Made by a program: the position numbers and the translations under genes. From assembly GCA_029220445.1 (NCBI GenBank), contig GCA_029220445.1_3666.1: a stretch of DNA of 64,000 bases; one strand, given 5' to 3'. The notes beneath the pieces are model-generated. The model worked only from the letters and a program-made list of their open reading frames with translations. It was not told where the DNA came from and did not search any database. Of the stretch, positions 23,439 to 40,167 are shown piece by piece. The number at the start of each line of letters is the position of its first letter. Within the stretch, counting starts at the first letter, position 1. The DNA is from a phage.

Positions 23439-23707
23439 ACACTGGGCTCCTTAAATGAATCTATGTAATCAATTAAATCCCAAGCATCCCTATGACCTGT
23501 CAGAGGGTATACTTCTCCAAGAGGGATCATAGCAATAAGTCTATCAAAAACCCAATCTGGACGCAACATTTTATGGTGATACTCCCACTCACCTTCTACA
23601 GACTTTTTCTGAGTGATCAGGATCTCTGTGTAGTGTTTCGCCTGTCTTGAGTAGATTGAGAATGACTTGTACATAAATGGCCCCCTCTTGTTGAAAACAA
23701 AATACAC
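23435..23707 (-). CDS. hypothetical protein (90 aa)
   Basis: ORF, overlapping start/stop. Confidence 0.5.
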   Translation of the reverse strand: MYFVFNKRGPFMYKSFSIYSRQAKHYTEILITQKKSVEGEWEYHHKMLRPDWVFDRLIAMIPLGEVYPLTGHRDAWDLIDYIDSFKEPSV

Positions 23708-23709
23708 TA

Positions 23710-24024
23710 CTACCAGGTCACTGTCAAGTAGGCAACTGTGTTATTTTTCTCCGGAGAGATGCCAACAACATCCACCTGCAGGCCTCCTGCCCTCAAATCC
23801 CCAACAATGTGTGGGAAGTAGTCTGAGAGATGCGAGGGTAGATTTATCGAAAATCCGCATCCCAGAAAGCCTGCTAACGCTTTATTTTGTATCTCCCCTA
23901 CAATCGCATCATAAATGGAGTTAAGCTCGTCAGGGAGCGTTACAGGACGTTTTAGCGCTAACTGGTGTAATTTGTCCTTAGCACTCATTTTCATTTCAGG
24001 TCTACCTCTGGTGGTGCCAACCAC
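23710..24024 (-). CDS. hypothetical protein (104 aa)
   Basis: ORF; overlaps downstream methyltransferase start by ~30 nt. Confidence 0.45.
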   Translation of the reverse strand: MVGTTRGRPEMKMSAKDKLHQLALKRPVTLPDELNSIYDAIVGEIQNKALAGFLGCGFSINLPSHLSDYFPHIVGDLRAGGLQVDVVGISPEKNNTVAYLTVTW

Positions 24025-24524
24025 ATAAATGGCGGCAAGCCTAAACGGTTTTTCTTATCCCACACAAAATATGCATATGCTTGCCCGTCAGTTCTACCAT
24101 TTGATTGAAATGACGGACGCTTAGATATTGTGATCACAGTGGTAGGTGCATTATCAAGCCACCATTCAAATCTGGCTTTGCTTTCCAGAAAATTAAGACG
24201 TAAAAGCATAATAACTACGTCAGCATCTTTCAACGCCTTGTCTACAAACTCACGAGCTAAGCTGTATGGTGGGTTGGTGATAATACAGTCAACATGGTTG
24301 TATTCTGTATTCAGATAGTCAACACCTTCTTGGATTTCTCCCCATGCAGATCCTAACGGCATACGGGAGTAGAACACACCTGAGGCACTATTCCTGCAAG
24401 GCTCTAAGTAGGTCCAGTCTTCTGGGAACGGAATAAGGTCATACAGCCCTTCTGCACACCACTCCGGTGTCACATACTCATCGTAGGCGTTACGTTGTTC
24501 ATCAGGTTTTCTAGCACAAGTCAT
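23991..24524 (-). CDS. DNA N6-adenine methyltransferase-like (177 aa)
   Basis: Catalytic NPPY motif (CIITNPPYSL) and upstream EPCRNSASGVF SAM-binding-like block; same motif order as the MTase at 39340-40158. Confidence 0.6.
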   Translation of the reverse strand: MTCARKPDEQRNAYDEYVTPEWCAEGLYDLIPFPEDWTYLEPCRNSASGVFYSRMPLGSAWGEIQEGVDYLNTEYNHVDCIITNPPYSLAREFVDKALKDADVVIMLLRLNFLESKARFEWWLDNAPTTVITISKRPSFQSNGRTDGQAYAYFVWDKKNRLGLPPFMWLAPPEVDLK

Positions 24525-24539
24525 GCAAATCTCCAGATC

Positions 24540-24568
24540 ATAAAAGCCCTCCGAAGAGGGCTTTAGAA
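24540..24568 (-). terminator. intrinsic terminator for minus-strand transcripts (agccctc-ttcg-gagggct + T-run)
   Basis: Perfect hairpin with T-run on minus strand after ClpP-like gene. Confidence 0.6.
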
Positions 24569-24575
24569 TTAATGT

Positions 24576-25625
24576 TTAAACTTCTTCGACAATTCCTGCA
24601 CCCAGGATTTTTTCATTGAGCTCTTTTGCTGTTTTAATAATATTATCTACCAGACGCTTGCGAGTCTTATCTTTCACCTTAACCTCTTCACCGCCGTTCA
24701 GAGTAGTCTTCAATTGAGACAGAATATCCTGAAGTTCAACGACAGAGAATCTCTGCAGATCTTCTGAAGTAATCTCACCCAGGGCAATTCGGACGGTCTC
24801 GCCACTTTCCATCTGCAGATTCAGGAACACAGTGTGAACATCACCTTTCGAACCACCCGCTTTTGCAGATTCAACAGCATGAACTAACTCATCTAAAGAT
24901 GTGCACTGGTGAATCTCCGGAAGACCTGCTTCACCTAACACGCCTTCTTCATCACCTTTTGCCAGAAGCTTTTTCGGTTTTTGTCCGTTCTGGATGCGTT
25001 GTATGTTGCCTTCATCCAGAATAATAGCTCCAGTGCGTGCTGCCAGCTCTTCTCCGTCCAACCACACTTCGCCACCAGCTGTGATGGATGCGATCTCATC
25101 TTCTGTCAGCACCCCACCGTAGTATTTTTCGATTAAGCGTTCGAAATGTTTTTTCCAGTAGCTGACCTGAGTATTCATGTTCACACCGTTACCATAAGTG
25201 CCACCTTGGTAGTAGTGGAACATAAACTCTGTGTCCGGAGCCACAGTGCGTTCTTTGCAACCCAGCCATAAGATTGTTCCCGCAGAGCAGCACATCCCTT
25301 CAGCATGTGCAACAACGCTTGCCTGAGACTCGCGGAATGCCTGCAGATAAGCCATTGCAATGTTCACGCAACCCCCAGGACTATTGATGATCACCCGAAT
25401 GCTTTCTTCCGGCTGAGCCATACGGATCGTCTGCAGACGAGACATATGATCTTGTAAGTCTTCCAAATCGTCGATATAAAGAACGTGGTCAACAACTGGT
25501 GTTGGGTAGCTGTATGTTTCCATAATACCACCCGGCATACCGAACATTTTATTACTCATAGGTTCGAAACCGTTCTGTTTTTCTTTCATGCCGTGTACCA
25601 TGGTGCTACGAGGTGTTAAATTCAT
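24576..25625 (-). CDS. ClpP/S14-S49-like serine peptidase with ~130-aa C-terminal extension (349 aa)
   Basis: INSPGG, GMCCSAG (Ser position) and MFHYYQGG (His position) match ClpP-fold motifs. Confidence 0.65.
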   Translation of the reverse strand: MNLTPRSTMVHGMKEKQNGFEPMSNKMFGMPGGIMETYSYPTPVVDHVLYIDDLEDLQDHMSRLQTIRMAQPEESIRVIINSPGGCVNIAMAYLQAFRESQASVVAHAEGMCCSAGTILWLGCKERTVAPDTEFMFHYYQGGTYGNGVNMNTQVSYWKKHFERLIEKYYGGVLTEDEIASITAGGEVWLDGEELAARTGAIILDEGNIQRIQNGQKPKKLLAKGDEEGVLGEAGLPEIHQCTSLDELVHAVESAKAGGSKGDVHTVFLNLQMESGETVRIALGEITSEDLQRFSVVELQDILSQLKTTLNGGEEVKVKDKTRKRLVDNIIKTAKELNEKILGAGIVEEV

Positions 25626-25685
25626 GAGAAATCCTTAATATTGGAAGTTGAAAGCTATTTATTTAAACCTGATTCACATTTACCT

Positions 25686-25997
25686 TTATTTAGCAATCAC
25701 TATAGAGTACTTACGATTGTCAGAAGCATCGCAGCTCAATGATTGCCAGTCTACCACATACCACGTATCATTGTCAACAATCACTTTATCGCCTGTTCTG
25801 TAGCAGGTGCTGCTTTCAATAATCCGAGACTCGATAAAGAATCTGTGTCGGCGCTCACGTAGCAACGCTAAGTTGATTATATTGCCACCACTGTCCTTGA
25901 TCCATACATTCTTGGATCCTTTATATGCCAGAATTGTCTCGCCGTTATAGACAAACAGGCAGTATATTTTATTTAGTTTCTCTTGTATTGTGGCCAT
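25686..25997 (-). CDS. hypothetical protein (103 aa)
   Basis: ORF on minus strand. Confidence 0.5.
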   Translation of the reverse strand: MATIQEKLNKIYCLFVYNGETILAYKGSKNVWIKDSGGNIINLALLRERRHRFFIESRIIESSTCYRTGDKVIVDNDTWYVVDWQSLSCDASDNRKYSIVIAK

Positions 25998-26100
25998 ACT
26001 ATCTCCTTCTCCTTGTCTTGTCCGATAATAATATCTAAAGCTTACCTGTTTGTCAACAACTGTTTTAGATATTTAAGGGTGGAATAACCACCCTTCTGTA

Positions 26101-26889
26101 TTACTCGGAAACAGGGGTCCAAATATGATTTGCACGATCCTCTATAAGATTGAGAGCAATCTGACGACCCAACCCGGAACGAACGACATCGTCTGGACTA
26201 TCAAAGCTGATCATTCCAACCTCGGGATCTGGATGACGAGTAAAGAAATCCGTCACCCATGCAAGGCCAGATTTACCAGGGATGTCACGTTGGCTATTAT
26301 CGCCCATAATTACAAGGGTGGCCTGATCAGAGATCCTTGTGATAATTGACAACATTTCTTCAGGGTTAGTTTGCTGTGCCTCGTCAATCAGGACAAAGCA
26401 TCGCTCATCGAAACTACGACCACGAATGCTTTCAACCTCACAAATCTCGATACGGCTGTTCTGACCGTCTCCCAGCATTGCGGCAAAAGCACCTTTGCCA
26501 ACACGACGACAAATCGTGTCCATCATGCTTCGAAGATAGGGCCACAGTTTCTGCATTGCATTTCCAGGTTTAAATCCTGAAGTCTTTCCTGTCTGAACGT
26601 AAGGACGTGCAACAATGATCTTATCAATCTCGTTCTTACGCAGAAGATCACCTGCATATGCAGATGCCATGAATGTCTTACCGGATCCAAACACACCGTT
26701 TACAATAATAATCTTACGTGACCCTAGATAATCAAGATACTTTTGCTGCTTCTTATTCATTGGTCTGAGAGCTGGAGCGGTGTGCTCTCTTTCGTCAGCA
26801 AATTTCTCAGCAGCCTTACGCAGGCGATCAGATTTGCGAGCCTCTCTAGCCTCATCACGCATGCGTTTTGTTTCTTTAGCTCGACCCAT
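26101..26889 (-). CDS. phoH: PhoH-like ATPase (262 aa)
   Basis: Walker A GVFGSGKTF, IIVARPYVQTGKTSGFKPG and LIDEAQ...MGDNSQRD blocks typical of PhoH family. Confidence 0.75.
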   Translation of the reverse strand: MGRAKETKRMRDEAREARKSDRLRKAAEKFADEREHTAPALRPMNKKQQKYLDYLGSRKIIIVNGVFGSGKTFMASAYAGDLLRKNEIDKIIVARPYVQTGKTSGFKPGNAMQKLWPYLRSMMDTICRRVGKGAFAAMLGDGQNSRIEICEVESIRGRSFDERCFVLIDEAQQTNPEEMLSIITRISDQATLVIMGDNSQRDIPGKSGLAWVTDFFTRHPDPEVGMISFDSPDDVVRSGLGRQIALNLIEDRANHIWTPVSE

Positions 26890-26927
26890 GTTGGTACTCC
26901 TTTCAGATTGAGATGTGCCAAGTACTT

Positions 26928-27278
26928 TTACTGCAACAGTTTTTCAATAGCCGCTTCCATGCTGCTTGCAACAGCCTGAACTCGGATATTCATCTCTTCT
27001 TGGTGGATCAGCTCCTTAAGCTCTTTAATGGTAAATTCTTTAGAGAAACCTTCCACCATAATCTTGTGCAAGGCTTCTTGCGTGTCTACTTGCAAGAACT
27101 TTTCCAGTTTGTTGGCAGAGGCTTCTAAATCAGCCCGAATACGAGGGTCATCTGTGCGATTCAGCATTAGACGTAAGCCATCGAGATTAGTAGAAATAGC
27201 GTCTGCATGTTGAGTAACTAACCGTGGCAAAATGAGATCTACAAACTTATTAGCCAAATCGATACGTTCTTGTGTCAC
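26928..27278 (-). CDS. hypothetical helical protein (116 aa), GTG start
   Basis: GTG start overlaps stop of upstream small basic ORF. Confidence 0.5.
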   Translation of the reverse strand: MTQERIDLANKFVDLILPRLVTQHADAISTNLDGLRLMLNRTDDPRIRADLEASANKLEKFLQVDTQEALHKIMVEGFSKEFTIKELKELIHQEEMNIRVQAVASSMEAAIEKLLQ

Positions 27279-27388
27279 TGTTGCACCCCCTCTTCATCCT
27301 CATGATATTTCTTTTCGCGCTTGTGTTTTTTCTTAAGCTCAAGCGCAATCTCTTTTTTGTACGCCTTCTTCAAGGCTTTTTTAGCCAT
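27275..27388 (-). CDS. small lysine-rich protein (37 aa)
   Basis: Strong AGGAGG RBS 7 nt before ATG 27388; below ORF-track cutoff. Confidence 0.4.
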   Translation of the reverse strand: MAKKALKKAYKKEIALELKKKHKREKKYHEDEEGVQQ

Positions 27389-27450
27389 TTGGCACCTCCT
27401 CTGCTTTCATTACGCTAATTATAACCAACTTAACAAAGCTTTGTCAACAA

Positions 27451-27924
27451 TTAGTCAACCTGAACCCAACCATCTGCTGCCTTTTTAAACATTCTTTGGT
27501 TATCACTACCTCTGAAGGGTTTTTTGGTGGGGTTATCTTTTTCGTACTTACCATCCATAATGTAATCGACACTATCTTTAATGTAATCGGGAACCTCTTC
27601 AAACAAATACCCTGTGTACACCCAGATAGTTTTTGTGTTGCCGAAGTGTTCACGGATAGCGCGAATGATCGAGTACATACCATCAATATTGTAAGGCGCT
27701 AAAGGTTCGCCACCGCATAATGTAACGCCAGTAATGTGTTTCGGCTCTATAGAGTGAAGTATGCTCTCAATAGTGTCATTTGTTAACGGTTCCCCTTTAG
27801 CTGGTGACCAAACACTTTTGTTTTGGCAACCGACGCAGTGATGTGGGCAACCAGAACAGAACACCGTTGTCCTAATGCCTGGGCCGTCAACCATGCTACA
27901 CTCTATAATATTAACAACATTCAT
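27451..27924 (-). CDS. nrdG: anaerobic ribonucleotide reductase activating protein (radical SAM)
   Basis: N-terminus DGPGIRTTVFCSGCPHHCVGC with Cys cluster; 157 aa; next to nrdD. Confidence 0.8.
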   Translation of the reverse strand: MNVVNIIECSMVDGPGIRTTVFCSGCPHHCVGCQNKSVWSPAKGEPLTNDTIESILHSIEPKHITGVTLCGGEPLAPYNIDGMYSIIRAIREHFGNTKTIWVYTGYLFEEVPDYIKDSVDYIMDGKYEKDNPTKKPFRGSDNQRMFKKAADGWVQVD

Positions 27925-28157
27925 TCCTTATCCTCTTTTAGGTAAGGATATTCAGGCCCACAATAAGCTCTATCCAAGAAAACAGCTTCTTCCCCTCTGG
28001 AATCAGTAGATCTATAATACCCATCACCATGGTAACTAACGAACCAGTGGCACCCATCATCGCTTTCTACTGTTGTGGCTCTGTCCGAATGAAAGATAAT
28101 TTCGTAATCCTTACCGAATGTAAACCATCTGTTAGCTTTTACACAGACACCTATCAT
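27921..28157 (-). CDS. hypothetical protein (78 aa)
   Basis: ORF between homing-endonuclease-like gene and nrdG. Confidence 0.45.
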   Translation of the reverse strand: MIGVCVKANRWFTFGKDYEIIFHSDRATTVESDDGCHWFVSYHGDGYYRSTDSRGEEAVFLDRAYCGPEYPYLKEDKE

Positions 28158-28477
28158 AAGGAACCTCTCTTCTGTGATGTGCTTCTATTCAAGATAAACC
28201 TATAAAAGTCCATTTGATGAAGCCGTATAACTTTTTATACTTACGCTTCAGTGCTAACAATTTTATCTTGATTTTCTTGATAGATTTCCGCATTTCGACC
28301 CCTTATGCTTATAAGTACTCCGCATCGCATTCAGGGCAATGACAAATAAAATCGTCCAGTGCCTTGCACCAACGAAGATTGCAACGACAACCACACTTGC
28401 AAATTTTATAAATACCTGATGACATACTGCACCTCCTTAGTTAATAGCATGTTTAAGATATGCATATCTTTCTACAA

Positions 28478-29605
28478 TCATTTACCACAAATCTTCTTGT
28501 ATACCTCTTCTACCGTGTCAAACACTTCAGGCCTGTAGTAGAAAAACTCAGTGCTACCGTCAAATTTTACAGGAAAGTTTATTTTATACTTGCTGAAGGC
28601 CTTATGCACAGATTTTTCTAAATCTGCCATGTTTTGAGTTGATCCTTCCCACGTTTTCGCCAGGTAGAGATCATAAATACCTGCCCCTGCCCTTTTGGCA
28701 CTTTTCAATATCCTATCTTTTCTCTCTTCGACACTGACGCTAATACCGATCTTCATAAGTGTTGGTACTTCTAAGTCATCAACCATAATGTAAAGTTTGC
28801 CGTGATTGTACGATAAAAAGCCGTAGTTAGCACATCTAGGGCACCCATGTCCTTGCTTGAGCCTAATAGGAGCAGGAGACCATTCATAATCACAAATCTT
28901 ACATCTACATAATACTTTTGCACTACCGTTTTTAATTTTTCCAAGCACTTTAATACTTGGATTGACAACCTTTATATGCCCTACCCATTCCACATGGGAT
29001 CTCTTTGCATTGCCTTTACATCTAGGACACCCATGCCCTCGTTTAAGATGGGATGGTCTTGCTAGCCATTCATGACTGCAAATTTTGCATCGTGCCAATA
29101 CTGGTGTATCGCTATTTTTAACTCTTTCTACTATTTCAATATATGTATTTTTCTTCGTTATGTCCTCGACCCACTCGGTATGGGCTATAGCTCTGCTTTG
29201 TGCGAATTTTAGCTTGCCGCATCTAGGGCACCCATGTCCTTGTTTAAGAAGATAAGGCATTGCTGACCATTCATGACTGCAAATTTTGCAGCGGCACGGC
29301 ACTTTTGTTCTGCAGCTTATTATTTCTCCAATCACTTCGACATAAGGATTGACCTCTTGGATAACATTCAACCACTCCTTGTGTGGTATAATGTGGCTTT
29401 GTGCCATTTTTAGCTTTCCACATTCCCGGCAGCCTCGTCCTGCAAGGTGTTGGTGGGTAGCTTGTTCAAATTCTCCATGATATGGGCAGATAATTATAAC
29501 CTTGGTGCAGGCATTTACATACTCAACCTTAGAGTAATCATACTTATCTCCATGAACTGCTTTTGCCTTCTTTATAAACTCATCTGTTGTAAGTTTTCTG
29601 GACAC
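28478..29605 (-). CDS. putative free-standing homing endonuclease-like protein: four tandem zinc-ribbon repeats plus C-terminal GIY-YIG-like (T5orf172-type) domain
   Basis: Repeats CPYHGEF...GRGCRECGK / CKICSHEW...GHGCPRCGK x3; C-terminal GKLYIM...KIGIS...R block; inserted between nrdD and nrdG. Confidence 0.6.
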   Translation of the reverse strand: MSRKLTTDEFIKKAKAVHGDKYDYSKVEYVNACTKVIIICPYHGEFEQATHQHLAGRGCRECGKLKMAQSHIIPHKEWLNVIQEVNPYVEVIGEIISCRTKVPCRCKICSHEWSAMPYLLKQGHGCPRCGKLKFAQSRAIAHTEWVEDITKKNTYIEIVERVKNSDTPVLARCKICSHEWLARPSHLKRGHGCPRCKGNAKRSHVEWVGHIKVVNPSIKVLGKIKNGSAKVLCRCKICDYEWSPAPIRLKQGHGCPRCANYGFLSYNHGKLYIMVDDLEVPTLMKIGISVSVEERKDRILKSAKRAGAGIYDLYLAKTWEGSTQNMADLEKSVHKAFSKYKINFPVKFDGSTEFFYYRPEVFDTVEEVYKKICGK

Positions 29606-29671
29606 TGCTGAACCTTCTTAGCTCTAATCTTTGAACTAAGTGTGCCACATCCTTGTGGCTTTTGTCAAGTA

Positions 29672-31795
29672 TCAGCAACCACAACTTCCGTAGTGCTTAA
29701 CCCGTTCTATAACTTCCGCTTGCTTACCTTTATTGTAAGGACGGGAGTTAGGACTGGAAAGGTATCCAGACACTCTTCGGATCACTGAGATATATTGTTC
29801 ATCGTGGCATCCGCACGCAGGGCAGCAGAACCCTTTAGCTGTTGCACTGAACTCACCAGAGAAACCACACTTGAGACATTTATCCACAGGTTGGTTAATA
29901 CCAAAATACATAATGTGTTTATACCCGAAGTCAACAAGAGCCTCTAAAGCATCAAGGTTGTTTTTCAGGTTAGGTGTCTCTACGTATCCGATGTTGCCAC
30001 CGGAGGAGATCATAGCAAAACCTTCCTCATACTCCCACTTATCAAAAGGAGAGCTATTGATCCATACTGGCTGATGGAAACTGTTGGTGAGATATTCATG
30101 CTCGTGCTTTAACACTTCTGGATATTCACGATCCAGACAGGTTGCAGCTTTATAGCATAGACTCTCAGAAGGAGTGCCGTACAAGCTAAATGCTAGTCTA
30201 CTTTCCTTCTTGTATCGCTCACAAGCATCTCTCATGTGCTGAAGGATTCCAAGAGCTAAAGCCTTGTCACCTTCTCTGCCCAAAATCTGACAGGTTTCAT
30301 ACACACCAATGTACCCAATGCTGATGGAAGCGTACCCGTCATAGAAGAGTTTATCAATACTCTCTTCAGGGTCCAGGCGAGCAAGAGCGCCTTCACACCA
30401 CATGATAGGGTTCTGCCCTGCCTTTGTCCCTTTTAGACGATTAACCCTTACAAGGTGAGCCTCGTATGCAAGATCCAGGTATTCGTCAAGAACTGCAAAG
30501 AAATCAACACCTTCCGTTTTAGCTTTTGCCGCAATCATTGGCAGGTTAAGGCTAACAACGCCTAAGTTAAATCTGCCAAGGTATTTCTCCTCGCCTGTTT
30601 CCAAGTCATTGTATTTGCTAAGAAAACTCCGGCAACCCATGCTCGTTACTTTACCATCTGTCGAGCCTGTCACTTTACGATTTAGTGGAACAGAAACAAA
30701 GTCAGGATAAATCCGCTCTGCAGAGCATTCCAGAGCTAATCGTTTCAAATCATAGTTAGGATCTCCAGGGTTCATGTTGACACCCTCTTCTAGGAAGAAC
30801 AACACTTTAGGGAACACAGGTGTGATACGTTCTTCACCAAGACCCATTTTGTGGACTTTCAAGTAGTTTTTGGTAATCATTCTACCAAAGACTGAGGTGT
30901 CCAGACCTAAACTTAATGTGATGAATGGGGTTTGCCCGTTGACAGAAGTTAACGTATTGATTTGATAGAGCAAAGTCTGCATGCTGTCAAATACGTCTTT
31001 ATCTGTCATCTGCATTGCAACAGTCTCAGCATCTGGCAACCAATGTTCCTGGCAAAATTTAAGGTTCTTCTCATAAGTCGCCTCAGCATACTGTGCCAGA
31101 TAATGATCAATATGGCTCATAGTCTGACCCCCATATTGAGCACTAGCTACCGCACTAGAGATTTGGCTAAGGATTGTTGTTGCAACCCCTATTGACTTCG
31201 GCTTACTGACATGGGCGTTACCAATGTTGAATCCGTTTTCCAACATATCTGGATAATTTACCAAACAACAGTTTGTTAACGGACTGATCAAGTAGTCAAG
31301 ATCATGCACATGGATGAAGCCTTTATTGTGCTCTTCTGAGACACGGTCTGGCAGGATCTGTGTTGATGCAAGGTGTTTGCTAAGGATGCCTGCAAGCAGG
31401 TCACGATGAGTGTGTACATGATTGGTAGGCTTATTTGCGTTTTCTTTTGTAAATTCATCACAAGTTCGATCCAAGAAGCCACTAATATCTGCAAGCAGTT
31501 TTCCACCTGCCTCTCTGTTATTATCTCTTGTCTGTCTATACTGGATGTATTCTCTGGCTGCACATTTTAAACCCATATCCATAAGAGCATCTTCAACAAG
31601 GATATGGATATTTTTTACAGAGATCGTGCACTGGTCGGTTGGTAGATTGTTAGCAACAACTTCATTAACCGCACAAGCGATCCGGTAAGCTTCTTCTTCA
31701 GTATGTCCAGACTCAAGTAAGGCGGACTCTGCCGCCTTGATCACCTTAATTCCGTTATAGACCTCTTCTCTACCGTCCCGTTTTACAACTTTCAC
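29672..31795 (-). CDS. nrdD: anaerobic ribonucleoside-triphosphate reductase (class III)
   Basis: 707 aa; C-terminal glycyl-radical motif RVSGY and Cys cluster; adjacent nrdG. Confidence 0.9.
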   Translation of the reverse strand: MKVVKRDGREEVYNGIKVIKAAESALLESGHTEEEAYRIACAVNEVVANNLPTDQCTISVKNIHILVEDALMDMGLKCAAREYIQYRQTRDNNREAGGKLLADISGFLDRTCDEFTKENANKPTNHVHTHRDLLAGILSKHLASTQILPDRVSEEHNKGFIHVHDLDYLISPLTNCCLVNYPDMLENGFNIGNAHVSKPKSIGVATTILSQISSAVASAQYGGQTMSHIDHYLAQYAEATYEKNLKFCQEHWLPDAETVAMQMTDKDVFDSMQTLLYQINTLTSVNGQTPFITLSLGLDTSVFGRMITKNYLKVHKMGLGEERITPVFPKVLFFLEEGVNMNPGDPNYDLKRLALECSAERIYPDFVSVPLNRKVTGSTDGKVTSMGCRSFLSKYNDLETGEEKYLGRFNLGVVSLNLPMIAAKAKTEGVDFFAVLDEYLDLAYEAHLVRVNRLKGTKAGQNPIMWCEGALARLDPEESIDKLFYDGYASISIGYIGVYETCQILGREGDKALALGILQHMRDACERYKKESRLAFSLYGTPSESLCYKAATCLDREYPEVLKHEHEYLTNSFHQPVWINSSPFDKWEYEEGFAMISSGGNIGYVETPNLKNNLDALEALVDFGYKHIMYFGINQPVDKCLKCGFSGEFSATAKGFCCPACGCHDEQYISVIRRVSGYLSSPNSRPYNKGKQAEVIERVKHYGSCGC

Positions 31796-32070
31796 TTTTT
31801 CTCTCCAAAACCATTCTTAACAAAAGAGATGAAATCGTCGGCACCGCCTATATGGACACTTTCAAGATTGCTTTCTAAGAAGATCTGCGGCAACGTTCTG
31901 GGTACGATTGGACTGCACTTCTCAATAAGCTCTTCTTTTGTGTAACCCTCGCCAAGTGTCTTATATACAAAAGGCAGACCTTTACTGACTGCAAATTCTT
32001 TTGCTCTTACACAATGTGGGCAGTTATCTTTACCGTAAATAATAAAGAAAAAAGATTTTTCACAGCTCAT
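31792..32070 (-). CDS. glutaredoxin/thioredoxin-like redoxin (92 aa)
   Basis: CPHC active-site motif in IYGKDNCPHCVRAK; between nrdB and nrdD. Confidence 0.7.
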   Translation of the reverse strand: MSCEKSFFFIIYGKDNCPHCVRAKEFAVSKGLPFVYKTLGEGYTKEELIEKCSPIVPRTLPQIFLESNLESVHIGGADDFISFVKNGFGEKK

Positions 32071-32073
32071 GTA

Positions 32074-33162
32074 TTAAAACTCCCAAATTTCTTCTTCAGC
32101 GTCATTAACAGTTGTGTTGACGCGGTAGTCAGTGTTCGACATTTCTTGGTTCGCCGTCTGTTGCAATGAAGGTTTCATCCACACCTGCATAAACGGTAGA
32201 GGGTCCTTTGTTGGCGGCACAAAGTCTTTGTCGATGCCGTAGTAATCATAAATCGGTGAGCAGTTATAGTCAACCCATTCTTTAAGCAACGGTGAGTTAA
32301 GACCTATAATCGCTCTTCCTTCGCTGAAAATATAGTCACTCCAACCGTACTCTTTGGTTCGTACTTCATCAAGAATCTCTTTTAACTCCCCTTTTATCTC
32401 AAGGAAGCTTTTCTCCCATGCTGGATCATTAAGCAGGATATCAATGATGGCAAAATCACCTTTCGAGTGTAGCATTTCGTCAAGCATGATTTTTTGAACA
32501 AGCTGCGCCACCTGAACAAAAATACCCTGTTCAGCTACTGCGAAAGTGCATGCAAAACTTGCAATAAACTCAATACTTTCCAGAGCTAAAAGTGCAAAAA
32601 GCGCTCTAAGAATGCATTTCCGCACAATATCTTCTTCAACACTAGAAGGATCCAGTCGGTATTTTGCACCAATAACCTCAAGCTCTTGCATGTACTTGAC
32701 AATAACGCCAGATCTGCTCAGAACGTTTTGGTTTTCCTGAATCTCTTCTATAATCTCACGGGCATTGGGGAGGCATTGTCTAACAATCTCTGAGTAAGTT
32801 AGTGCGTGAAGAACTTCAATCTCTGACTGTTTCATCAATAGAGTGAAAAGCTCACTATTAGTGATGAATGGTGAAAAGAGGCAGATGATCGATCTTGCCG
32901 CAACGCTATCAGCCTCCCATTGCCACATCAAGGTCTGCACCATTACATCATAAGTTGACTTGGAGCATGTTACAAAATCTGAAATAGATTGCGACAAATC
33001 CACTTCATCCTCTGCCCAGTCTTGTTCTTTTTGTTTTTTGTACAGTTCGAACAGTTGTGGATATTTTTTGTTGATAGAGTCGTACATACCCATTTGCTGT
33101 CCCAGAAACAGCGGATAGTCACCAGTTTTATGAGCGGTGTTCTCAGCATTAAATACAGCCAT
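32074..33162 (-). CDS. nrdB: ribonucleotide reductase class Ia small subunit
   Basis: Di-iron/tyrosyl-radical family by context and length; ATG 33162 with GAGGTAG RBS preferred over track start 33222; directly downstream of nrdA. Confidence 0.85.
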   Translation of the reverse strand: MAVFNAENTAHKTGDYPLFLGQQMGMYDSINKKYPQLFELYKKQKEQDWAEDEVDLSQSISDFVTCSKSTYDVMVQTLMWQWEADSVAARSIICLFSPFITNSELFTLLMKQSEIEVLHALTYSEIVRQCLPNAREIIEEIQENQNVLSRSGVIVKYMQELEVIGAKYRLDPSSVEEDIVRKCILRALFALLALESIEFIASFACTFAVAEQGIFVQVAQLVQKIMLDEMLHSKGDFAIIDILLNDPAWEKSFLEIKGELKEILDEVRTKEYGWSDYIFSEGRAIIGLNSPLLKEWVDYNCSPIYDYYGIDKDFVPPTKDPLPFMQVWMKPSLQQTANQEMSNTDYRVNTTVNDAEEEIWEF

Positions 33163-33200
33163 TATTCTACCTCTAAAATGGGGCCGAAGCCCCTTTAAAA

Positions 33201-35516
33201 TTATAGTGCACAGCTTTCGCAATACGGATCTTCAACTGAACTATCTGCAATCAAAGGATAGTTCTTTCTGGTTTCATCTTCAGCCTGTTTCTTGGCATGA
33301 AGTTCCTCTGCCAAGGAGTCACCCGCACCAACCCTGGAGTTTAAATAATACCATGTCTTCATTCCGAATTTAGTGGCACGGATAAGGTACCCTAGCTGCT
33401 CCTTCATTGAAATTTTACCATCTTTCAACTTGGTGTAGTCTATGTATAAATCCGCGCTGATTGCCTGACCTGTAAATTTTTGAATCACAGCATACATATC
33501 GATCATGTCGTTAGTATCAACGTCCCAAGCCGAGGTGTAATACTCTTTCAACTCATCATAGTCAGGAACGATAAACAGCACCTGCCCTTGTGGCGACTTT
33601 TTAAAGATAATGTGCTCACGGACAGGATAAACCCCGTTAGTGGTGTTTGTTGCCAGCGAAGAGCTTTCATTAGGCATATATGCTTCAAGAACGCTATTAC
33701 GTAGCCCACCATTTTCAATGATTTCTTTACGTAACCCTTCCCAATCCTGTTTAAGAGAAGGATCTTTCACCACGCTATCGACCTCTTTGTTATAGGTGTC
33801 GATTGGTAACCAACCCTCCGGGTATTTTGTTTTATGCATCCACTCACAGACACCACGCTCTTTTGCCAATCGTAAACTTGCCTTATGCAAACTGTAGCTG
33901 TGAAGTTCTGCAAGATCGTGAACAAGCTGTTTACTTTCAGGAGATCCGTAAGTAACCTTGTGGCTGGCAATAAAATGTGCAACATTGGTAAGGCCAACTC
34001 CGATGGATCTGCGTTTTTTAACAGTGCTCTCCATATTTTCATACGGATATGTCATGATTTCCATAACATTGTCAATCATAAGCACCGTGTAATATGCAAC
34101 ATCCTCATACTCCTCTGGGGTAACCCTTCCGGCTACAAGGGATGACAGGAAGCACAATGCAACTTCGCCATCATCAACATCGTGCTTGAAGATATTACGC
34201 ATATCTGAATAGCCTTTTGTCGGGAGGGCTATTTCTGCACACAGGTTACTTGAATAGATCACATCTTTAAAAGGTGTATGTCTATTCATCTCATCTGTCC
34301 AATATACGTACAGTCTTCCCACCTCGGTACGCTGCGTGATCAGCTCAACAGCAAGATCTCTAGCTCGGATCCATGTTTTAGGAATACTGTCATCTTTAGC
34401 GATACGATCAACCTCTGCATCAAACTCCTCCATAGACATGGTGAAGATACCCTCATGCAGTTGAGGAGCGTGCTTATAAGAAACAAGCATCCAATCTAAA
34501 TTCTTAGCCACACGGTTGATAAACGACCTATTAATACCGATGGAGTAGTCCATGGTGTTGATTCTTTTTGAAGCAACAGTCATAGGGTTTCTCAAACGGA
34601 TTAGCTCATCAATCTGCGGGTCCAGTGCAAGGAATGATACTGTTGCAGAACCGCCACGTGATTGTTGTCTGTTCTCCTTAACACCAGCATCAATACCTCG
34701 ATAATATGGAATCTTACCCATATGTTTAATAGTGTTACCACGAACACCATCGCCTGCAGATCTTGAGGATAAGTAGTAGCCGATACCTGCTTGGTTAACC
34801 GTCATTGTGTACGCAACTTCACGTGCCACACCAATAGATTTTGCTGTATCGTCAGCTTTTATTACACAACAAGATGCATACCCTGTCTTACCTGTGCGCA
34901 GCCCGTTTAAGTACGGTGTCGGGGCATTGATCTTTAAGTCGGACAGATAAGTGTATAATTTTACAACATCGTTGATACGACGTTCTTTCGGCATATTCTT
35001 CATGACAGCCATTGCTATCCCCATAAACATCATCTGGGGAGATTCAAACAAGGTGTCTTTAAGAGTATCCTTGATCCCGTATTTGTCGCGAAACTGTTTA
35101 AGGACTGCATAGCCATAACCGAGATCTTTACTGTGGTCAATAACAGCGTCTAAAGTGTTTAGCTCGGTAAAGCTATAACCCATATCCTCCCAATAACCTT
35201 TCTCAACCATGTCATTGTAAAATGATGGTAAGGAAGGGATCTTTGTAAACCCTCCAAAAGCCTCTTTATAGATCTGACCAATAAGAACACGACCAGCCAT
35301 ACGGGAATGTGCTTCGTCTTTACGGCTAACACAAGAGTCTATAATAGCTTGGTTAACTTCTTTGGTTGTACATCCATCATACAACCGCTTGTAGGCATCC
35401 AGTGCAATATGTGACCAATTGCCGTTACCGTCGTCACCGAAAATAGCTGCCTTATTTAAACGTTCTGGATCGAATGCCACTTCACATCCGTTGCTTTTAA
35501 TTACCTTGGTGATCAA
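33201..35516 (-). CDS. nrdA: ribonucleotide reductase class Ia large subunit
   Basis: 771 aa; N-terminal ATP-cone; conserved RNR alpha blocks (LNSRVGAG, NLCAEI). Confidence 0.9.
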   Translation of the reverse strand: MITKVIKSNGCEVAFDPERLNKAAIFGDDGNGNWSHIALDAYKRLYDGCTTKEVNQAIIDSCVSRKDEAHSRMAGRVLIGQIYKEAFGGFTKIPSLPSFYNDMVEKGYWEDMGYSFTELNTLDAVIDHSKDLGYGYAVLKQFRDKYGIKDTLKDTLFESPQMMFMGIAMAVMKNMPKERRINDVVKLYTYLSDLKINAPTPYLNGLRTGKTGYASCCVIKADDTAKSIGVAREVAYTMTVNQAGIGYYLSSRSAGDGVRGNTIKHMGKIPYYRGIDAGVKENRQQSRGGSATVSFLALDPQIDELIRLRNPMTVASKRINTMDYSIGINRSFINRVAKNLDWMLVSYKHAPQLHEGIFTMSMEEFDAEVDRIAKDDSIPKTWIRARDLAVELITQRTEVGRLYVYWTDEMNRHTPFKDVIYSSNLCAEIALPTKGYSDMRNIFKHDVDDGEVALCFLSSLVAGRVTPEEYEDVAYYTVLMIDNVMEIMTYPYENMESTVKKRRSIGVGLTNVAHFIASHKVTYGSPESKQLVHDLAELHSYSLHKASLRLAKERGVCEWMHKTKYPEGWLPIDTYNKEVDSVVKDPSLKQDWEGLRKEIIENGGLRNSVLEAYMPNESSSLATNTTNGVYPVREHIIFKKSPQGQVLFIVPDYDELKEYYTSAWDVDTNDMIDMYAVIQKFTGQAISADLYIDYTKLKDGKISMKEQLGYLIRATKFGMKTWYYLNSRVGAGDSLAEELHAKKQAEDETRKNYPLIADSSVEDPYCESCAL

Positions 35517-35743
35517 TTTGCTTCCTCCACTTCATTAACGTATTTATCAAGGCAGGTATCAGTATCTTGCTGGATAAAGGTATCCTCTTCTACAGAGATA
35601 TTTATAATTTTACCTGTATACTCGTCATAATAAACATCATCATACATTTTAATATCGTTTGTCAGGCCGTTGAACCAAAGCCAACCAACATACTCTGCCC
35701 GACTTGCAAAACCAAGATCCTTCCACTTGGAGTTATGACTCAT
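35513..35743 (-). CDS. hypothetical protein (76 aa)
   Basis: ATG 35743 with AAGGTGG RBS preferred over overlapping track start 35821. Confidence 0.4.
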   Translation of the reverse strand: MSHNSKWKDLGFASRAEYVGWLWFNGLTNDIKMYDDVYYDEYTGKIINISVEEDTFIQQDTDTCLDKYVNEVEEAN

Positions 35744-35753
35744 CTTCACCACC

Positions 35754-36215
35754 TTAGCTTTCAATACCGAATAATTTTTCCAGGCGATGCAGATCTTCAA
35801 AATTGAAAGGTTCATCAACAATATGAATATCTTCAGCCTTTTCAGATTGTTTTGTATACTTTCTTACATTAACACGATCCTCTACAGGGATATCATACGG
35901 AAGATCTTGAACAAGCATTGCCTCACCGGGTGCTTTATCTACATCTAAAATATCTACACCGTTATACATTTGCGGGTATCTAAAGTCTGCACGCATGACA
36001 CCAGCAAATACATCTGCCTTTCGATAATGTGTTGGCTTATTTTTGCATCGAACGTTTTTTCCACGAAGAACATCAATACTTTTTAAATCAAACCCTACGG
36101 CAAAGAGTGCAGCTCGGAGACCGTTTCGTGTGCGAACGTTAAACCCGGGAACGGTAGATAGGAAATCCAAAGTAACTGAAATAAATGTCTTTTTAGGAAT
36201 CATAACATTACTCAT
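35754..36215 (-). CDS. hypothetical protein (153 aa)
   Basis: ATG 36215 with GGAGA RBS; track start 36254 lacks RBS. Confidence 0.5.
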   Translation of the reverse strand: MSNVMIPKKTFISVTLDFLSTVPGFNVRTRNGLRAALFAVGFDLKSIDVLRGKNVRCKNKPTHYRKADVFAGVMRADFRYPQMYNGVDILDVDKAPGEAMLVQDLPYDIPVEDRVNVRKYTKQSEKAEDIHIVDEPFNFEDLHRLEKLFGIES

Positions 36216-36313
36216 ATCTGTCTCCATTTCTGGCTCACTAACAAAGTGAGCCATTATTATAGATTATCTGATACTATTAGTCAACACAAAAGTTACCTAT
36301 CGCTGTGATAGGA

Positions 36314-37297
36314 TTAACCTTTCACGAAGTGGTTATTAAGCAGTTGTCTGTGCTGAACCCACCCACAAAAGTTGGCAGACCAGAATTTACCATCACGGTC
36401 TTGATGGGTTACACCTTCCTGCCAAGTACTGATGTCTTGTGTGATTTCACATGAAGACAGGTAGTAGTTTAAACGTTCCATTGCGTTATCGTGATCCATA
36501 GGTGTTGCCTGGTGCTCGTAAGGGCTTGCATGAATACGATCCCCACCAATCAATTTTTTAGCCACACTGTCTGCCTTTTCAAACGTGCTGTCAATATTTC
36601 GATAAGATACTTGTGCACAGCAACTAGCACTGATAGACAGAGCTTCTTTAGTATCGAGAATGCAGAGCTTTCCTTCTGTGTCACGCACAGCGTAGTTAAA
36701 CTCTCCGTCCAAATAAACGTGCTCTACATATGGGGTGTGCCATTGACCCGGTTTAAGGATTTCAGGAGTGCTATTCCCAAGAGCCTCCCACATACAATTA
36801 GCCAACATCTGAATCGTAGGATCCGCATCGTGCCAGCAACGGAGGTGGAAAAAATTGTTCCACTCGGTGCTTGTTACAACTGTTTTCATGCGCTGAAAAG
36901 GCTCCACTAAGCGGTTACATACTTGCTTATGGTAACCAGCAAGTGCGAACTTCTCTGCATGCCAAGCGGCGTTTTTTGCAGCCTCTTTCCAAAACTCTTC
37001 AGGAGTTAGCTCCATGTCAGTGTACTCTACACGGATCTTTTGATCGTGTTCCCCACCATCCTCCATTCCTCGCTTATTTACACCGAAGCGAACTGGCATT
37101 GCCGGATTCTCCACAATCTGTTGCAGCATCTTGCCGACAGGTACTGCACGGGAAGACATGGCGTTTCGGCTGAACACTCGGTGCGTCATAAGCTCTGAGT
37201 GAATAATTCGAGGATACTCTAGTTCAAAAGTGGTGATACGCTTACCTTTCTCGGAAATGCTGTCAGCAATAATCTTTGCAGTGCACAGTTTTAGCAT
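36314..37297 (-). CDS. thyX: flavin-dependent thymidylate synthase
   Basis: ThyX signature HR-x7-S (THRVFSRNAMSS); 327 aa. Confidence 0.8.
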   Translation of the reverse strand: MLKLCTAKIIADSISEKGKRITTFELEYPRIIHSELMTHRVFSRNAMSSRAVPVGKMLQQIVENPAMPVRFGVNKRGMEDGGEHDQKIRVEYTDMELTPEEFWKEAAKNAAWHAEKFALAGYHKQVCNRLVEPFQRMKTVVTSTEWNNFFHLRCWHDADPTIQMLANCMWEALGNSTPEILKPGQWHTPYVEHVYLDGEFNYAVRDTEGKLCILDTKEALSISASCCAQVSYRNIDSTFEKADSVAKKLIGGDRIHASPYEHQATPMDHDNAMERLNYYLSSCEITQDISTWQEGVTHQDRDGKFWSANFCGWVQHRQLLNNHFVKG

Positions 37298-37497
37298 TAT
37301 TTAGCTCTCCTTGTTTTAATTTTGGAAATTTCGTCTGGGTTTATGTTGGCCTTAAATGCAAGGTATCTGTTGAACATGTCAGAGCACATATCTTGGGTGA
37401 TCCTAGAGGCATACACTAGCTTACCTCCCAGATCATACACCTCTAGCCAGTCACCGTATCTGACTACAGGATCGCCACCTTTAGAACATCTGCCCAT
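37297..37497 (-). CDS. hypothetical protein (66 aa)
   Basis: ORF with stop/start overlap to thyX. Confidence 0.45.
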   Translation of the reverse strand: MGRCSKGGDPVVRYGDWLEVYDLGGKLVYASRITQDMCSDMFNRYLAFKANINPDEISKIKTRRAK

Positions 37498-37498
37498 T

Positions 37499-38092
37499 TC
37501 AAATACCTTCTAAAAACTTTCCTATTTTATACCAGCTATTAGCGGTATAGTCAACACTGACCTTTAACTCCTCGAATTGCTCATAAGGCGTATCTTTTAG
37601 GATTTTAATAACTTCAGGTCGTGAAGCGAATTGGTTCAGGTATTCATGCCTGTCATCAATTATAACATCTACAGCCACATTTCCTTTGAAATGTGTGGCG
37701 TAGAAGCCGTGGCCCTGGGTGTGATCGTCCAGATCCATAAAATCACTGGTCCAACGCTTTAAGAACCTTGATTTAGATGCAAGGTGGCCTTTCTTGCATA
37801 CCGAGATAAATGCAAGCTTGTGACCACGAGCCACCAAATCTTTCATAACCTCAATAGCCCCCTCTTCAGGCTTAAGGAAGTCGTAGAGGAACGGGTCACT
37901 CCAGAAATCAAAAGGCCCTATGATGTTTTCTTTGGGGCGATCAGGCCAATACTTCGACAGATCGTAATACATTAGCCCATTAGAAGGTTTAGCGACTGTC
38001 TTACTGGCTGGACCATACAAACGCTCCAACCACTCCCACCATGCTGTTCCTGAATCTACCAGTGTCAAATCTACATCAATTCCGATTAACAT
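37499..38092 (-). CDS. HAD-superfamily phosphatase, 5'(3')-deoxyribonucleotidase-like (197 aa)
   Basis: HAD motif I DxDxT (IGIDVDLTLVDS); nucleotide-metabolism neighbourhood. Confidence 0.5.
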   Translation of the reverse strand: MLIGIDVDLTLVDSGTAWWEWLERLYGPASKTVAKPSNGLMYYDLSKYWPDRPKENIIGPFDFWSDPFLYDFLKPEEGAIEVMKDLVARGHKLAFISVCKKGHLASKSRFLKRWTSDFMDLDDHTQGHGFYATHFKGNVAVDVIIDDRHEYLNQFASRPEVIKILKDTPYEQFEELKVSVDYTANSWYKIGKFLEGI

Positions 38093-38700
38093 TCTTCTTG
38101 GGCCTCTTTAGCATCAATATACTTGCACACAATCTCCGATGCACACTCCCAAGGTGCACCTTCAGGGTTTACAACATCAAACTCAACCCCTTTTATTCCG
38201 TTCTTTTCCAGACTTAGATAGGTTCTGGAATCATTTCCCCAGTCATATCCTACACGGTGAATACGGAACAACAACAGATCTCCACCTGTGCTGTATGCGT
38301 ACTCGCTAAGGCATGCCAGCTCCTCTTTGAATCCACCATCGGAGTAAACAATAACCCCTTTACTTTCAGGAAAATCTTTCTTCAAAGATGCGACTGCGGC
38401 TTTACCGAAAGCATCTTCACCAAAGATAGGTTTAATCAGATTTTCACTACAATGGATCATCCATTTTCGCGGAGAAACATGCTTGCCGTCTATCATTAAG
38501 AAAGGGCAAGGCTCTTCTTTGTAGTGGCGGTCATAAAGTGCATTCCAGAGTTGAGGAGTTACACCAGCTGCCTTAATTGCCACACTGAAGAGCATTTCCT
38601 TAACCTCACGGTGGTGTGAGTTAGGAATAGCTTCCAACAAGAGATCTGCAATGTGATCCTTACCACTGCTGGGTGGGGCGTTAAGAACAATAATATCCAT
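38086..38700 (-). CDS. P-loop deoxynucleoside monophosphate kinase-like (204 aa)
   Basis: P-loop variant NAPPSSGKD resembling T4 gp1-type SGKD kinases. Confidence 0.55.
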   Translation of the reverse strand: MDIIVLNAPPSSGKDHIADLLLEAIPNSHHREVKEMLFSVAIKAAGVTPQLWNALYDRHYKEEPCPFLMIDGKHVSPRKWMIHCSENLIKPIFGEDAFGKAAVASLKKDFPESKGVIVYSDGGFKEELACLSEYAYSTGGDLLLFRIHRVGYDWGNDSRTYLSLEKNGIKGVEFDVVNPEGAPWECASEIVCKYIDAKEAQEEC

Positions 38701-38903
38701 TAAAAACCTCCGTGGTATTCTTCAACTGCATCAATAATACTTTTACACTTATCTACCAGCTCGTTAGCCACTACAGCATCGTCTTCCCAAACAGCCTCCT
38801 CAATCTGATCAAGCAATGATCGCATCTTACTCATCATTTCTGGGATAAAGTTTTCTGAAAAGCTGTCTGGAATTGTTAACTCTAGTGTCATTTCGGTCTC
38901 CAA
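38700..38903 (-). CDS. hypothetical acidic protein (67 aa)
   Basis: ORF with overlapping stop/start. Confidence 0.45.
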   Translation of the reverse strand: METEMTLELTIPDSFSENFIPEMMSKMRSLLDQIEEAVWEDDAVVANELVDKCKSIIDAVEEYHGGF

Positions 38904-38918
38904 TCATACTATGCGTTA

Positions 38919-39377
38919 TTAGAAGTTTGTTTTTACACGTCCCTTCTCATCAACCTCGTTGTTAGCTAAAAGCGTTACAAAGTCTGTGAAACGAACATGA
39001 AGAACCCTTTTCTTATCAAGGTATCCTAAAGCCACCCCTGAGAAATTTAGCATCAAAGGGGCTAAAGAAGCTCTGGCACTGAAATGCTGTTGTTCTACCC
39101 TTCCAACACCCTTAGTGTAGGATGGGTTAAGATTGTAAGTTCTGAATCCCAGTTTTGTTGGAGCTTTAGAATTAAAAACGACTTTATAGCGTTTCTTACT
39201 CAACTTATGCTCCAGGATAAGCATTCCCTTATCACCTTTGATAAGTTGAAAATCTGTAAAGTGCTCTTTTAAGACGAAAGGTAGTGCCAGTCCCATCGCC
39301 TGTCCTCTTTGTACCGCTGTCTCACCAAAAGCTTTTGCATCAGTAAGTTCTTTGGTCAAGTCTATGCTTTTGATCAT
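38919..39377 (-). CDS. hypothetical protein (152 aa)
   Basis: ORF on minus strand. Confidence 0.5.
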   Translation of the reverse strand: MIKSIDLTKELTDAKAFGETAVQRGQAMGLALPFVLKEHFTDFQLIKGDKGMLILEHKLSKKRYKVVFNSKAPTKLGFRTYNLNPSYTKGVGRVEQQHFSARASLAPLMLNFSGVALGYLDKKRVLHVRFTDFVTLLANNEVDEKGRVKTNF

Positions 39378-40158
39378 ACCTGGTCTCCAAAATGTATTGT
39401 AGTTCTTTCTTACCTATACTCTTCATTCCAGCAGTCTTACCTGCTTCTTCTTGAAAAGAAGAATAGCATTCAGCAAACACTCTGTCAACACCGTTAACTA
39501 AAGATTTTATGAAATATGTTGATTCTTCAGATTTTGGGTCATCATCCCCCAATACTTTTCCAGCATTATACCCAACACGTCTTACACAGAAGTCGTAGTC
39601 ATCTGGTGTGCTAAAAGAAAATAACTTATTCTCTCCAATCTCTACAGGATCCCTATTGCACGCCTTTTTCTCCCAAATTTGGAAAACACATGGCACGTCA
39701 TAAGGTTTGCCATTAAGTAAAAACGAATTCTTAGGGCACCTTTCGCTGTAGACAAGGTGCATCGACATGTCCAGTTTGTTTGCAAAAAATATTTTTTCAA
39801 ATGTCCGTGGCAAGATGAAGGCTATAGCCCCTCCAAGCTCTAGCAATGATGCACAATGGTTAAAGAATTTGCAAGCTAAGGATGAATTCTTGCCAAATGG
39901 TGGGTTACCTATGAAGACATCTGCCTTGGGATGCACCTCCAAGAAGTTTGCCTGAATGCACGGTGTTGGTCCTTCAAATTCAGGATCTGGTACTAAATCG
40001 TACGACAGTATCTCTGAAAATAGTTTTGAAAAAGAACCCCTTCCAGCAGAAGGCTCAACGTATGCACAATTCCCATACTTATCTTTTACTTTACCAACAA
40101 GATATTCTGCATACTCAGGGTTTGTGTAATATTTGTCGTTGGACTCTTTCTTACTCAA
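39340..40158 (-). CDS. DNA N6-adenine methyltransferase (272 aa)
   Basis: SAM-binding motif VEPSAGRGSF and catalytic FIGNPPFGK. Confidence 0.7.
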   Translation of the reverse strand: MSKKESNDKYYTNPEYAEYLVGKVKDKYGNCAYVEPSAGRGSFSKLFSEILSYDLVPDPEFEGPTPCIQANFLEVHPKADVFIGNPPFGKNSSLACKFFNHCASLLELGGAIAFILPRTFEKIFFANKLDMSMHLVYSERCPKNSFLLNGKPYDVPCVFQIWEKKACNRDPVEIGENKLFSFSTPDDYDFCVRRVGYNAGKVLGDDDPKSEESTYFIKSLVNGVDRVFAECYSSFQEEAGKTAGMKSIGKKELQYILETRYDQKHRLDQRTY

Positions 40159-40167
40159 AGTGCCTCC

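Follow-up and report, generated by a model that had tools for sequence, protein, structure and literature searches.

Two distantly related, predicted solitary DNA N6-adenine methyltransferases in an rV5-like phage of Escherichia coli

Two predicted methyltransferase genes in a vequintavirus genome

The 64,000-nucleotide stretch of phage DNA analysed here (contig GCA_029220445.1_3666.1 of assembly GCA_029220445.1; the whole stretch is referred to below as the window) carries two minus-strand open reading frames, ORF1 and ORF2, that are predicted to encode solitary DNA N6-adenine methyltransferases. Over positions 23500-26000 the window shares 99.7% identity with Escherichia phage V5/rV5, and both the ORF1 and the ORF2 region are matched by about 120 related Vequintavirus records; by sequence, the window can be assigned to an rV5-like myovirus of Escherichia coli in the genus Vequintavirus. 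An original prediction, made by reading the window, had named two ORFs of 177 and 272 amino acids (aa) with NPPY and NPPF motifs, lying about 15 kb apart. Both were recovered at the limits it gave, with 14,815 bp between them, and in a scan of all window ORFs of at least 60 aa for the pattern [DNS]PP[YFWH] these two were the sole credible matches. The two genes and their elements, including the loop that would bind S-adenosylmethionine (SAM), are as follows.

23991-24524, minus strand: ORF1, 177 aa, ATG start, NPPY; equivalent to rv5_gp118 / ORF 123
24465-24482, minus strand: ORF1 motif X, DEYVTP, residues 15-20
24372-24407, minus strand: ORF1 motif I / SAM loop, LEPCRNSASGVF, residues 40-51
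24264-24275, minus strand: ORF1 catalytic motif IV, NPPY, residues 84-87
24529-24564, minus strand: hairpin AAAGCCCTC-TTCG-GAGGGCTTT with a T-run, then a GGAG ribosome-binding site, as read from the sequence
39340-40158, minus strand: ORF2, 272 aa, TTG start, NPPF; equivalent to rv5_gp096 / ORF 100
40117-40137, minus strand: ORF2 motif X, DKYYTNP, residues 8-14
40030-40059, minus strand: ORF2 motif I, VEPSAGRGSF, residues 34-43
39895-39906, minus strand: ORF2 catalytic motif IV, NPPF, residues 85-88
39343-39654, minus strand: ORF2 C-terminal domain, about 105 aa, about residues 169-272
40163-40196, minus strand: terminator-like hairpin (40177-40196) and GGAGG (40163-40167), after the gene for a DnaQ-like exonuclease

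Each gene thus comes after a terminator-like hairpin and is served by a separate ribosome-binding site, GGAG 7 nt ahead of the ORF1 ATG and GGAGG 4 nt ahead of the ORF2 TTG. A consensus terminator scan did not list the hairpin ahead of ORF1. At its other end, the stop region of ORF1 is overlapped by a small minus-strand ORF (23710-24024), the orthologue of rv5_gp119; the overlap measures 34 nt when this ORF is taken at its longest and 4 nt as annotated in rV5, which suggests translational coupling.

Motifs and selection

Both proteins follow the motif order X, I, the acidic residues of II/III and then IV, (D/N)PP(Y/F). We assessed the conservation of these motifs using family profiles built from diverse homologues, 53 for ORF1 and 52 for ORF2, together with the family alignments A1 (ORF1) and A2 (ORF2); the alignments lack the start codon, so that positions in their first sequence are one below the protein numbering used here. 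In ORF1, the D, Y, T and P of motif X are invariant or nearly so in A1, E63 and D69 supply the acidic residues, and the N-P-P of motif IV is invariant in 53/53 family members. The SAM loop of ORF1 reads L40-EPCRNSASGVF51, with alanine in place of the first glycine and a two-residue NS insert. Because the active enzyme M.TaqI has an analogous non-GxG loop (LEPACAHGPF in a hidden Markov model alignment), this departure is not evidence that ORF1 is inactive. In ORF2, the E, P, A, G, G and F of motif I are invariant in the 52 family members, the acidic residue is D54, and GNPPFG is invariant in A2. Of the two further motifs that had been described as shared, EPxxGxGxF is found literally in ORF2 but not in ORF1, and Y-TP-E holds for ORF1 (YVTPE) but not for ORF2 (YTNPE).

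Across the two families the catalytic and SAM-binding motifs are kept down to 33-39% identity. Relative to phage FV3, ORF1 has 23 synonymous and 2 non-synonymous differences, giving a ratio of non-synonymous to synonymous rates (dN/dS) of 0.02, and ORF2 has 27 and 14 (dN/dS 0.12), values comparable to those of the neighbouring ClpP-like and PhoH genes. Both are real genes under purifying selection. An inactive shorter ORF, the scenario that had been raised against the original prediction, is unlikely, since the ORF1 motifs are kept across 53 relatives to 33% identity and purifying selection on the gene is strong.

A shared catalytic core and a C-terminal domain in ORF2 alone

Compared directly by BLASTP, ORF1 and ORF2 show a marginal similarity (E 0.028). 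When the two family profiles were compared using hhalign, they aligned with a probability of 97.9% (E 3.6e-13, 147 columns), essentially the whole of ORF1 pairing with residues 2-168 of ORF2, its N-terminal catalytic domain, at an identity of only about 20%. This makes the two ancient, distant paralogues within the gamma-class amino-methyltransferases, and not the outcome of a recent duplication. Structural models generated using AlphaFold 2 have a class I Rossmann-like methyltransferase fold in both cases, and Foldseek searches of the PDB with the two models returned N6-adenine DNA and RNA methyltransferases at E values of 1e-5 to 1e-8. Sequence searches of the PDB with the single proteins returned nothing meaningful.

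The C-terminal domain of ORF2 lies outside the hhalign overlap and is missing from ORF1. It is confidently folded, is conserved in A2 (RRVG..AGKV, YF, TAG..S..E) and falls inside the PADLOC MTase_II model described below; no PDB fold match found by Foldseek reaches over it. We presume it to be the target-recognition domain. The same comparisons support ORF1 as a minimal predicted N6-adenine methyltransferase made up of the catalytic domain only. In other genera, its close relatives measure about 226 aa and have a basic C-terminal tail that ORF1 lacks. Given the identity of about 20% and a C-terminal domain present in ORF2 alone, it is plausible that the two enzymes would have two different specificities, as had been proposed.

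ORF1 belongs to a widespread family of phage genes

ORF1 matches phrog_799, labelled 'DNA methyltransferase', at 5.5e-67. Its matches to the Pfam EcoRI_methylase and Dam families are sub-threshold only; the score against PF05869 is 19.2 bits (curated threshold 28.1), and that against TIGR01712 is 16.1 bits (family threshold 97.05). A search of the PDB with the ORF1 family profile gave M.TaqI as the best match (2.9e-6), together with Erm methyltransferases, PacII, HsdM and BseCI. The structural model, with a mean predicted local distance difference test score (pLDDT) of 89.0, matches Dim1/KsgA, HsdM, CamA, PacII and BseCI at template-modelling (TM) scores of 0.5-0.6. Against PADLOC, ORF1 gave a weak, partial match to the MTase_II model PDLC03297 (9.8e-4), which is a different model from the one that ORF2 matches.

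Relatives of ORF1 occur in 579 phage records, and the family, with proteins of about 170 aa, is almost confined to phages. It is present in every Vequintavirinae-like group sampled, among them Vequintavirus, the phAPEC8-like phages, phi92 and phages of Klebsiella, Proteus, Cronobacter, Pectobacterium and Salmonella, and extends to Vibrio K139-like phages and Aeromonas phages. On this distribution, ORF1 appears to be a core gene of the Vequintavirinae. In the three genomic contexts examined, its relatives lie within replication modules of phages and have no nuclease partner.

The closest known parallel in layout is the small phage Dam family (PF05869/TIGR01712), of which HP1 orf13 is a member (7e-75 against PF05869 Dam); the HP1, T1 and VT-2 Dam enzymes are cited in PMC7556043. 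HP1 orf13 aligns to the ORF1 family with an hhalign probability of 94.8% (E 5.5e-8) and is of similar size (173 versus 177 aa). Like ORF1, it is single-domain and has no separate recognition domain, shows the layout D-x-[YW]-x-TP ... NPPYS ... LL and lies in an early/replication region of the phage. Unlike this family, however, ORF1 scores far below the family thresholds and has an EP...G.F motif I, which HP1 lacks in the alignment. M.TaqI and the Type I HsdM proteins share with both ORF1 and ORF2 the motif order X-I-II-III-IV, the NPP[YF] loop and the Rossmann fold. M.TaqI, though, is a 421-aa protein with a large C-terminal recognition domain, whereas ORF1 has none and the 105-aa domain of ORF2 is unrelated to it, without a fold match.

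ORF2 is related to the methyltransferase of a bacterial Type II pair

ORF2 was missed by the curated Pfam and NCBIfam models and matches phrog_5172 (2.6e-129), a PHROGs family labelled 'unknown function'. Against the REBASE-derived PADLOC MTase_II models, it matches PDLC03255 at 3.2e-34 over the full length (residues 7-252 against positions 2-249 of 269) and PDLC03256 at 1.9e-25. Its structural model (pLDDT 93.7) matches TrmN, M.TaqI, HsdM and BseCI. Many ORF2 homologues carry a precomputed PF26055 label.

Scanning one genome per prokaryotic species, we obtained 80 loci with relatives at 32-54% identity. At 20 of these 80 loci, the next gene downstream on the same strand, at a distance of -64 to +28 nt, is conserved and encodes about 215 aa; the paired loci span Campylobacterota, Alphaproteobacteria, Gammaproteobacteria, Verrucomicrobiota and others. 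The product of this partner gene carries a PD-(D/E)xK-like signature (HGKxFE...FDI...PTSIKS...QRRLQCS), and 17/17 tested members match the PADLOC REase_II model PDLC03460, with a best E value of 5.3e-15. There was no usable NCBIfam match for the partner, and a search of the PDB with its family profile found no solved relative and hence no recognition sequence to borrow. The family of ORF2 is thus one whose bacterial members form the methyltransferase half of a compact Type II restriction-modification (R-M) pair.

This pair, apparently unnamed, occurs in several bacterial phyla and couples a gamma-class methyltransferase (about 265 aa) with a nuclease (about 215 aa). Its example loci are L006 (6001-7404) and 19 more (including L011, L034, L047 and L062). 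L006 comes from Poseidonibacter ostreae, WFKJ01000010, at 57.0-58.5 kb. Members classed as PDLC03255/03256 plus PDLC03460, such as those in Poseidonibacter ostreae, Sphingomonadales and Paracoccaceae, have methyltransferases 35-43% identical to ORF2. ORF2 keeps all the invariant residues of these enzymes, and differs in that the phage copy has no nuclease partner.

Since no cognate nuclease gene is adjacent to it in the window, ORF2 can be regarded as an orphan from this Type II R-M family. A homologue from the enterobacterium Leclercia is likewise solitary, in a region resembling a mobile element, and gives no pointer to a cognate enterobacterial nuclease. Among phages, ORF2 occurs in 228 records, mainly of Vequintavirus and Phapecoctavirus; set against the 579 records with ORF1, these counts make ORF1 the older of the two and a core gene, to which ORF2 was added in a restricted set of lineages.

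Homologues of ORF2 were also found on two ORFan-rich metagenome contigs of 230-250 kb (L004 and L005), which encode ankyrin, ART-PolyVal, patatin and RCC1 proteins. By gene content both look viral, and either might come from a giant virus or a jumbo phage.

The 3' end of ORF2 is overlapped by 38 nt by a 152-aa minus-strand ORF (38919-39377) that has no Pfam or NCBIfam match and a dN/dS of 0.02 relative to FV3. In some GenBank records this ORF is mislabelled 'putative DNA N6-adenine methyltransferase' (APECc02 gp123). Its sole distant homologue, at 30% identity across 94 aa, is phAPEC8 gp077. In phAPEC8 this gene immediately precedes the one for the ORF2-type methyltransferase, so that in Phapecoctavirus the adjacency is kept with the order swapped. 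This hints that ORF2 and the 152-aa ORF might form a two-gene module. We considered the 152-aa ORF as a degenerate cognate nuclease and rejected it, as it matches no hidden Markov model of the partner family, to which it is unrelated, and its BLAST similarity is at chance level (E at least 0.045).

Genome context

The region between ORF1 and ORF2 is a block of replication and nucleotide-metabolism genes. It includes genes for a ClpP-like protease, PhoH, NrdG, a T5orf172-type protein, NrdD, NrdB, NrdA, ThyX, an NT5C-like nucleotidase and a P-loop protein. Genes for the DnaQ-like exonuclease and for EndoVII lie just past ORF2.

The T5orf172-type gene (28478-29605, minus strand) encodes a 375-aa protein that combines a DUF4379 treble-clef zinc finger with a homing-endonuclease-type T5orf172 domain, and lies between nrdG and nrdD. 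The same spot is occupied by three small ORFs in rV5, while in FV3 and AlexBoehm it is nrdD itself that is interrupted, by an HNH endonuclease or intron. The nrdG-nrdD locus is a hotspot for selfish elements. In the rV5 record, the annotation at 58027-60872 (near the window's right end) gives the large terminase gene as a join of three segments that enclose an HNH endonuclease gene.

A third 'DNA methyltransferase' in the window, so labelled in RefSeq (rv5_gp063), was rejected. The orthologous ORF (59695-60270, plus strand) matches PF14550 at 3.8e-17, has no methyltransferase motif and is an XkdF-type prohead serine protease. It is flanked upstream by a 518-aa ORF that we read as the portal ('hypothetical protein' in rV5) and downstream by a 325-aa ORF that we read as the scaffold.

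Proposed function and alternatives

We propose, with a probability of roughly 0.72, that ORF1 and ORF2 are two solitary SAM-dependent DNA N6-adenine methyltransferases with different targets, ORF2 being an antidote derived from an R-M system and ORF1 a Dam-like enzyme. Motifs, profiles, predicted fold and the R-M neighbourhood of ORF2 in bacteria agree on the N6-adenine, gamma-class type that had been suggested for both. That DNA is the substrate of ORF1, that the targets are distinct and that the role is one of anti-restriction, we infer. In this proposal, ORF2 would be the phage-borne methyltransferase component of the bacterial Type II pair, without its nuclease in the phage. Its most likely activity is the methylation of a single short, specific sequence in phage DNA as this replicates, by which progeny would be shielded from hosts with the cognate nuclease. 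ORF1 most likely methylates adenine in another short motif. The leading guess for this motif is GATC, by analogy with the small phage Dam enzymes, for which this specificity is a property known from the literature.

Solitary methyltransferases are common and over-represented in phages, with 143 in 831 genomes (PMC4176335). Within the window, GATC is not avoided (371 observed versus 342 expected from a Markov model and 238 from base composition), which fits with GATC doing no harm to rV5-like phages but proves nothing on the targets of ORF1 or ORF2; a Felix O1-like coliphage has been reported without any GATC site (PMC4690856). Among window palindromes, GTAC (0.61) and CTAG (0.52) are depleted, with no target assignable to either enzyme.

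A number of observations weigh against this proposal. ORF1 has no recognisable separate DNA-recognition domain, and ORF1 and ORF2 both fall below every curated Pfam and NCBIfam threshold. The best fold and sequence matches include the RNA methyltransferases Dim1/KsgA, TrmN, METTL5, Ta1320 and PH1948, and some homologues of ORF2 carry the JGI name 'predicted RNA methylase'. For neither enzyme did the analysis yield a target motif, and we found no methylome, restriction-digest or enzyme-assay data for any Vequintavirus in the searchable literature; nor does the rV5 genome paper mention methylation. Finally, Vequintavirinae stand out by an exceptional sensitivity to the six R-M systems tested, of Types I, II and III (PMC8594841). 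Because of this sensitivity, broad protection is excluded and any protective scope must be narrow, which leaves specificity-matched protection or a role outside defence.

High R-M sensitivity despite both genes also counts in favour of a reading in which the methyltransferases serve the phage's own DNA transactions and not anti-restriction, for example through Dam-like full methylation of rapidly replicating DNA that avoids MutH nicking, through the timing of replication or packaging, or as a self-mark against a phage or host nuclease. The biochemistry would be the same and the biological role different. We regard this as a possible, if tentative, explanation and a live one especially for ORF1, a subfamily-wide core gene with very strong constraint on its sequence (dN/dS 0.02); both genes sit in the replication and nucleotide-metabolism block, and PMC7556043 calls the function of phage Dam enzymes 'still not well understood'. 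However, the analysis turned up neither a regulatory target nor a site dependent on methylation, and the bacterial relatives of ORF2 are R-M components, the classical source of antidote methyltransferases (PMC4176335). A combined scenario, in which ORF1 represents a sister family to the small HP1/T1-type Dam enzymes and may have a role other than anti-restriction, and in which ORF2 and the 152-aa ORF could form a counter-defence module, seems to us quite improbable. Under that scenario ORF1 may provide a self-mark for replication, packaging or nuclease discrimination, or may be a near non-specific adenine methylase.

The RNA enzymes among the matches raise the question of the substrate. Top Foldseek matches of ORF1 are the archaeal DIMT1/Dim1 ribosomal RNA (rRNA) dimethylases and PH1948, Erm rRNA methyltransferases score near M.TaqI in the profile search, and NCBIfam gives a weak match to HemK, which has a similar NPPY. 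Together with the missing recognition domain and first glycine of motif I, these would fit an ORF1 that methylates RNA (adenine N6 or guanine N2 of rRNA or transfer RNA) or protein glutamine, or that is a dead binding protein. This is unlikely, as the closest characterised small homologues are the phage Dam enzymes of PF05869, the same non-GxG loop occurs in an active DNA enzyme, M.TaqI, members of the family lie within DNA-replication modules of phages, and ORF1 is homologous to the catalytic domain of ORF2, itself from an R-M methyltransferase family; the strong purifying selection speaks against a dead protein. It is very unlikely that ORF2 is an RNA methylase of METTL5/Ta1320 type and no DNA enzyme. 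Its profile does match Ta1320 (3.9e-4) and METTL5 (0.05) in the PDB ahead of M.TaqI (0.1), in keeping with the JGI name carried by several homologues, but this similarity is confined to the generic Rossmann half up to NPPF. No significant match to a family of RNA N6-methyladenosine or N2-methylguanosine enzymes was found beyond the Rossmann/NPPF core, with Pfam MTS and RrnaAD sub-threshold, whereas the MTase_II match is full-length and the REase_II-type partner stands in an operon with the methyltransferase at those 20 loci from several phyla. One might also imagine ORF1, lacking a recognition domain and homologous to ORF2 over the catalytic core, as a catalytic subunit recruited by ORF2 or another recognition subunit, the two acting as one enzyme. 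We consider this barely credible: the genes lie 14.8 kb apart, ORF2 has intact catalytic motifs of its own, and most carriers of ORF1 (which include the Vibrio, Aeromonas, Cronobacter and Pectobacterium phages) must lack ORF2, given 579 records against 228.

Relation to known phage methyltransferases and significance

T4/T2 Dam and P1 Dmt, likewise solitary enzymes that modify phage DNA as it replicates (PMC7556043), are functional analogues of the two methyltransferases proposed here. They differ in having the alpha class and motif order, and show no detectable sequence similarity to ORF1 or ORF2. In kind, ORF1 and ORF2 are ordinary phage orphan methyltransferases and already known: both genes are annotated in more than 100 public genomes, as putative N6-adenine or DNA methyltransferases in rV5 (rv5_gp118 and rv5_gp096), FV3, phAPEC8, the BASEL phages and many others, and a survey paper reports methyltransferases in all vequintaviruses. 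We found no experimental characterisation of either in the literature. The present analysis adds the remote paralogy of ORF1 and ORF2, the recognition that ORF1 is a bare catalytic core and the R-M pairing of the bacterial relatives of ORF2, and corrects the two misleading public labels described above.

For the biology of these phages, the result poses a puzzle, in that two methyltransferases are maintained under strong purifying selection and yet the phages are among the most restriction-sensitive coliphages tested. As rV5-like phages are widely used in phage therapy and in the biocontrol of E. coli O157, the target sequences of ORF1 and ORF2 would help to explain their host range against strains with particular R-M systems.

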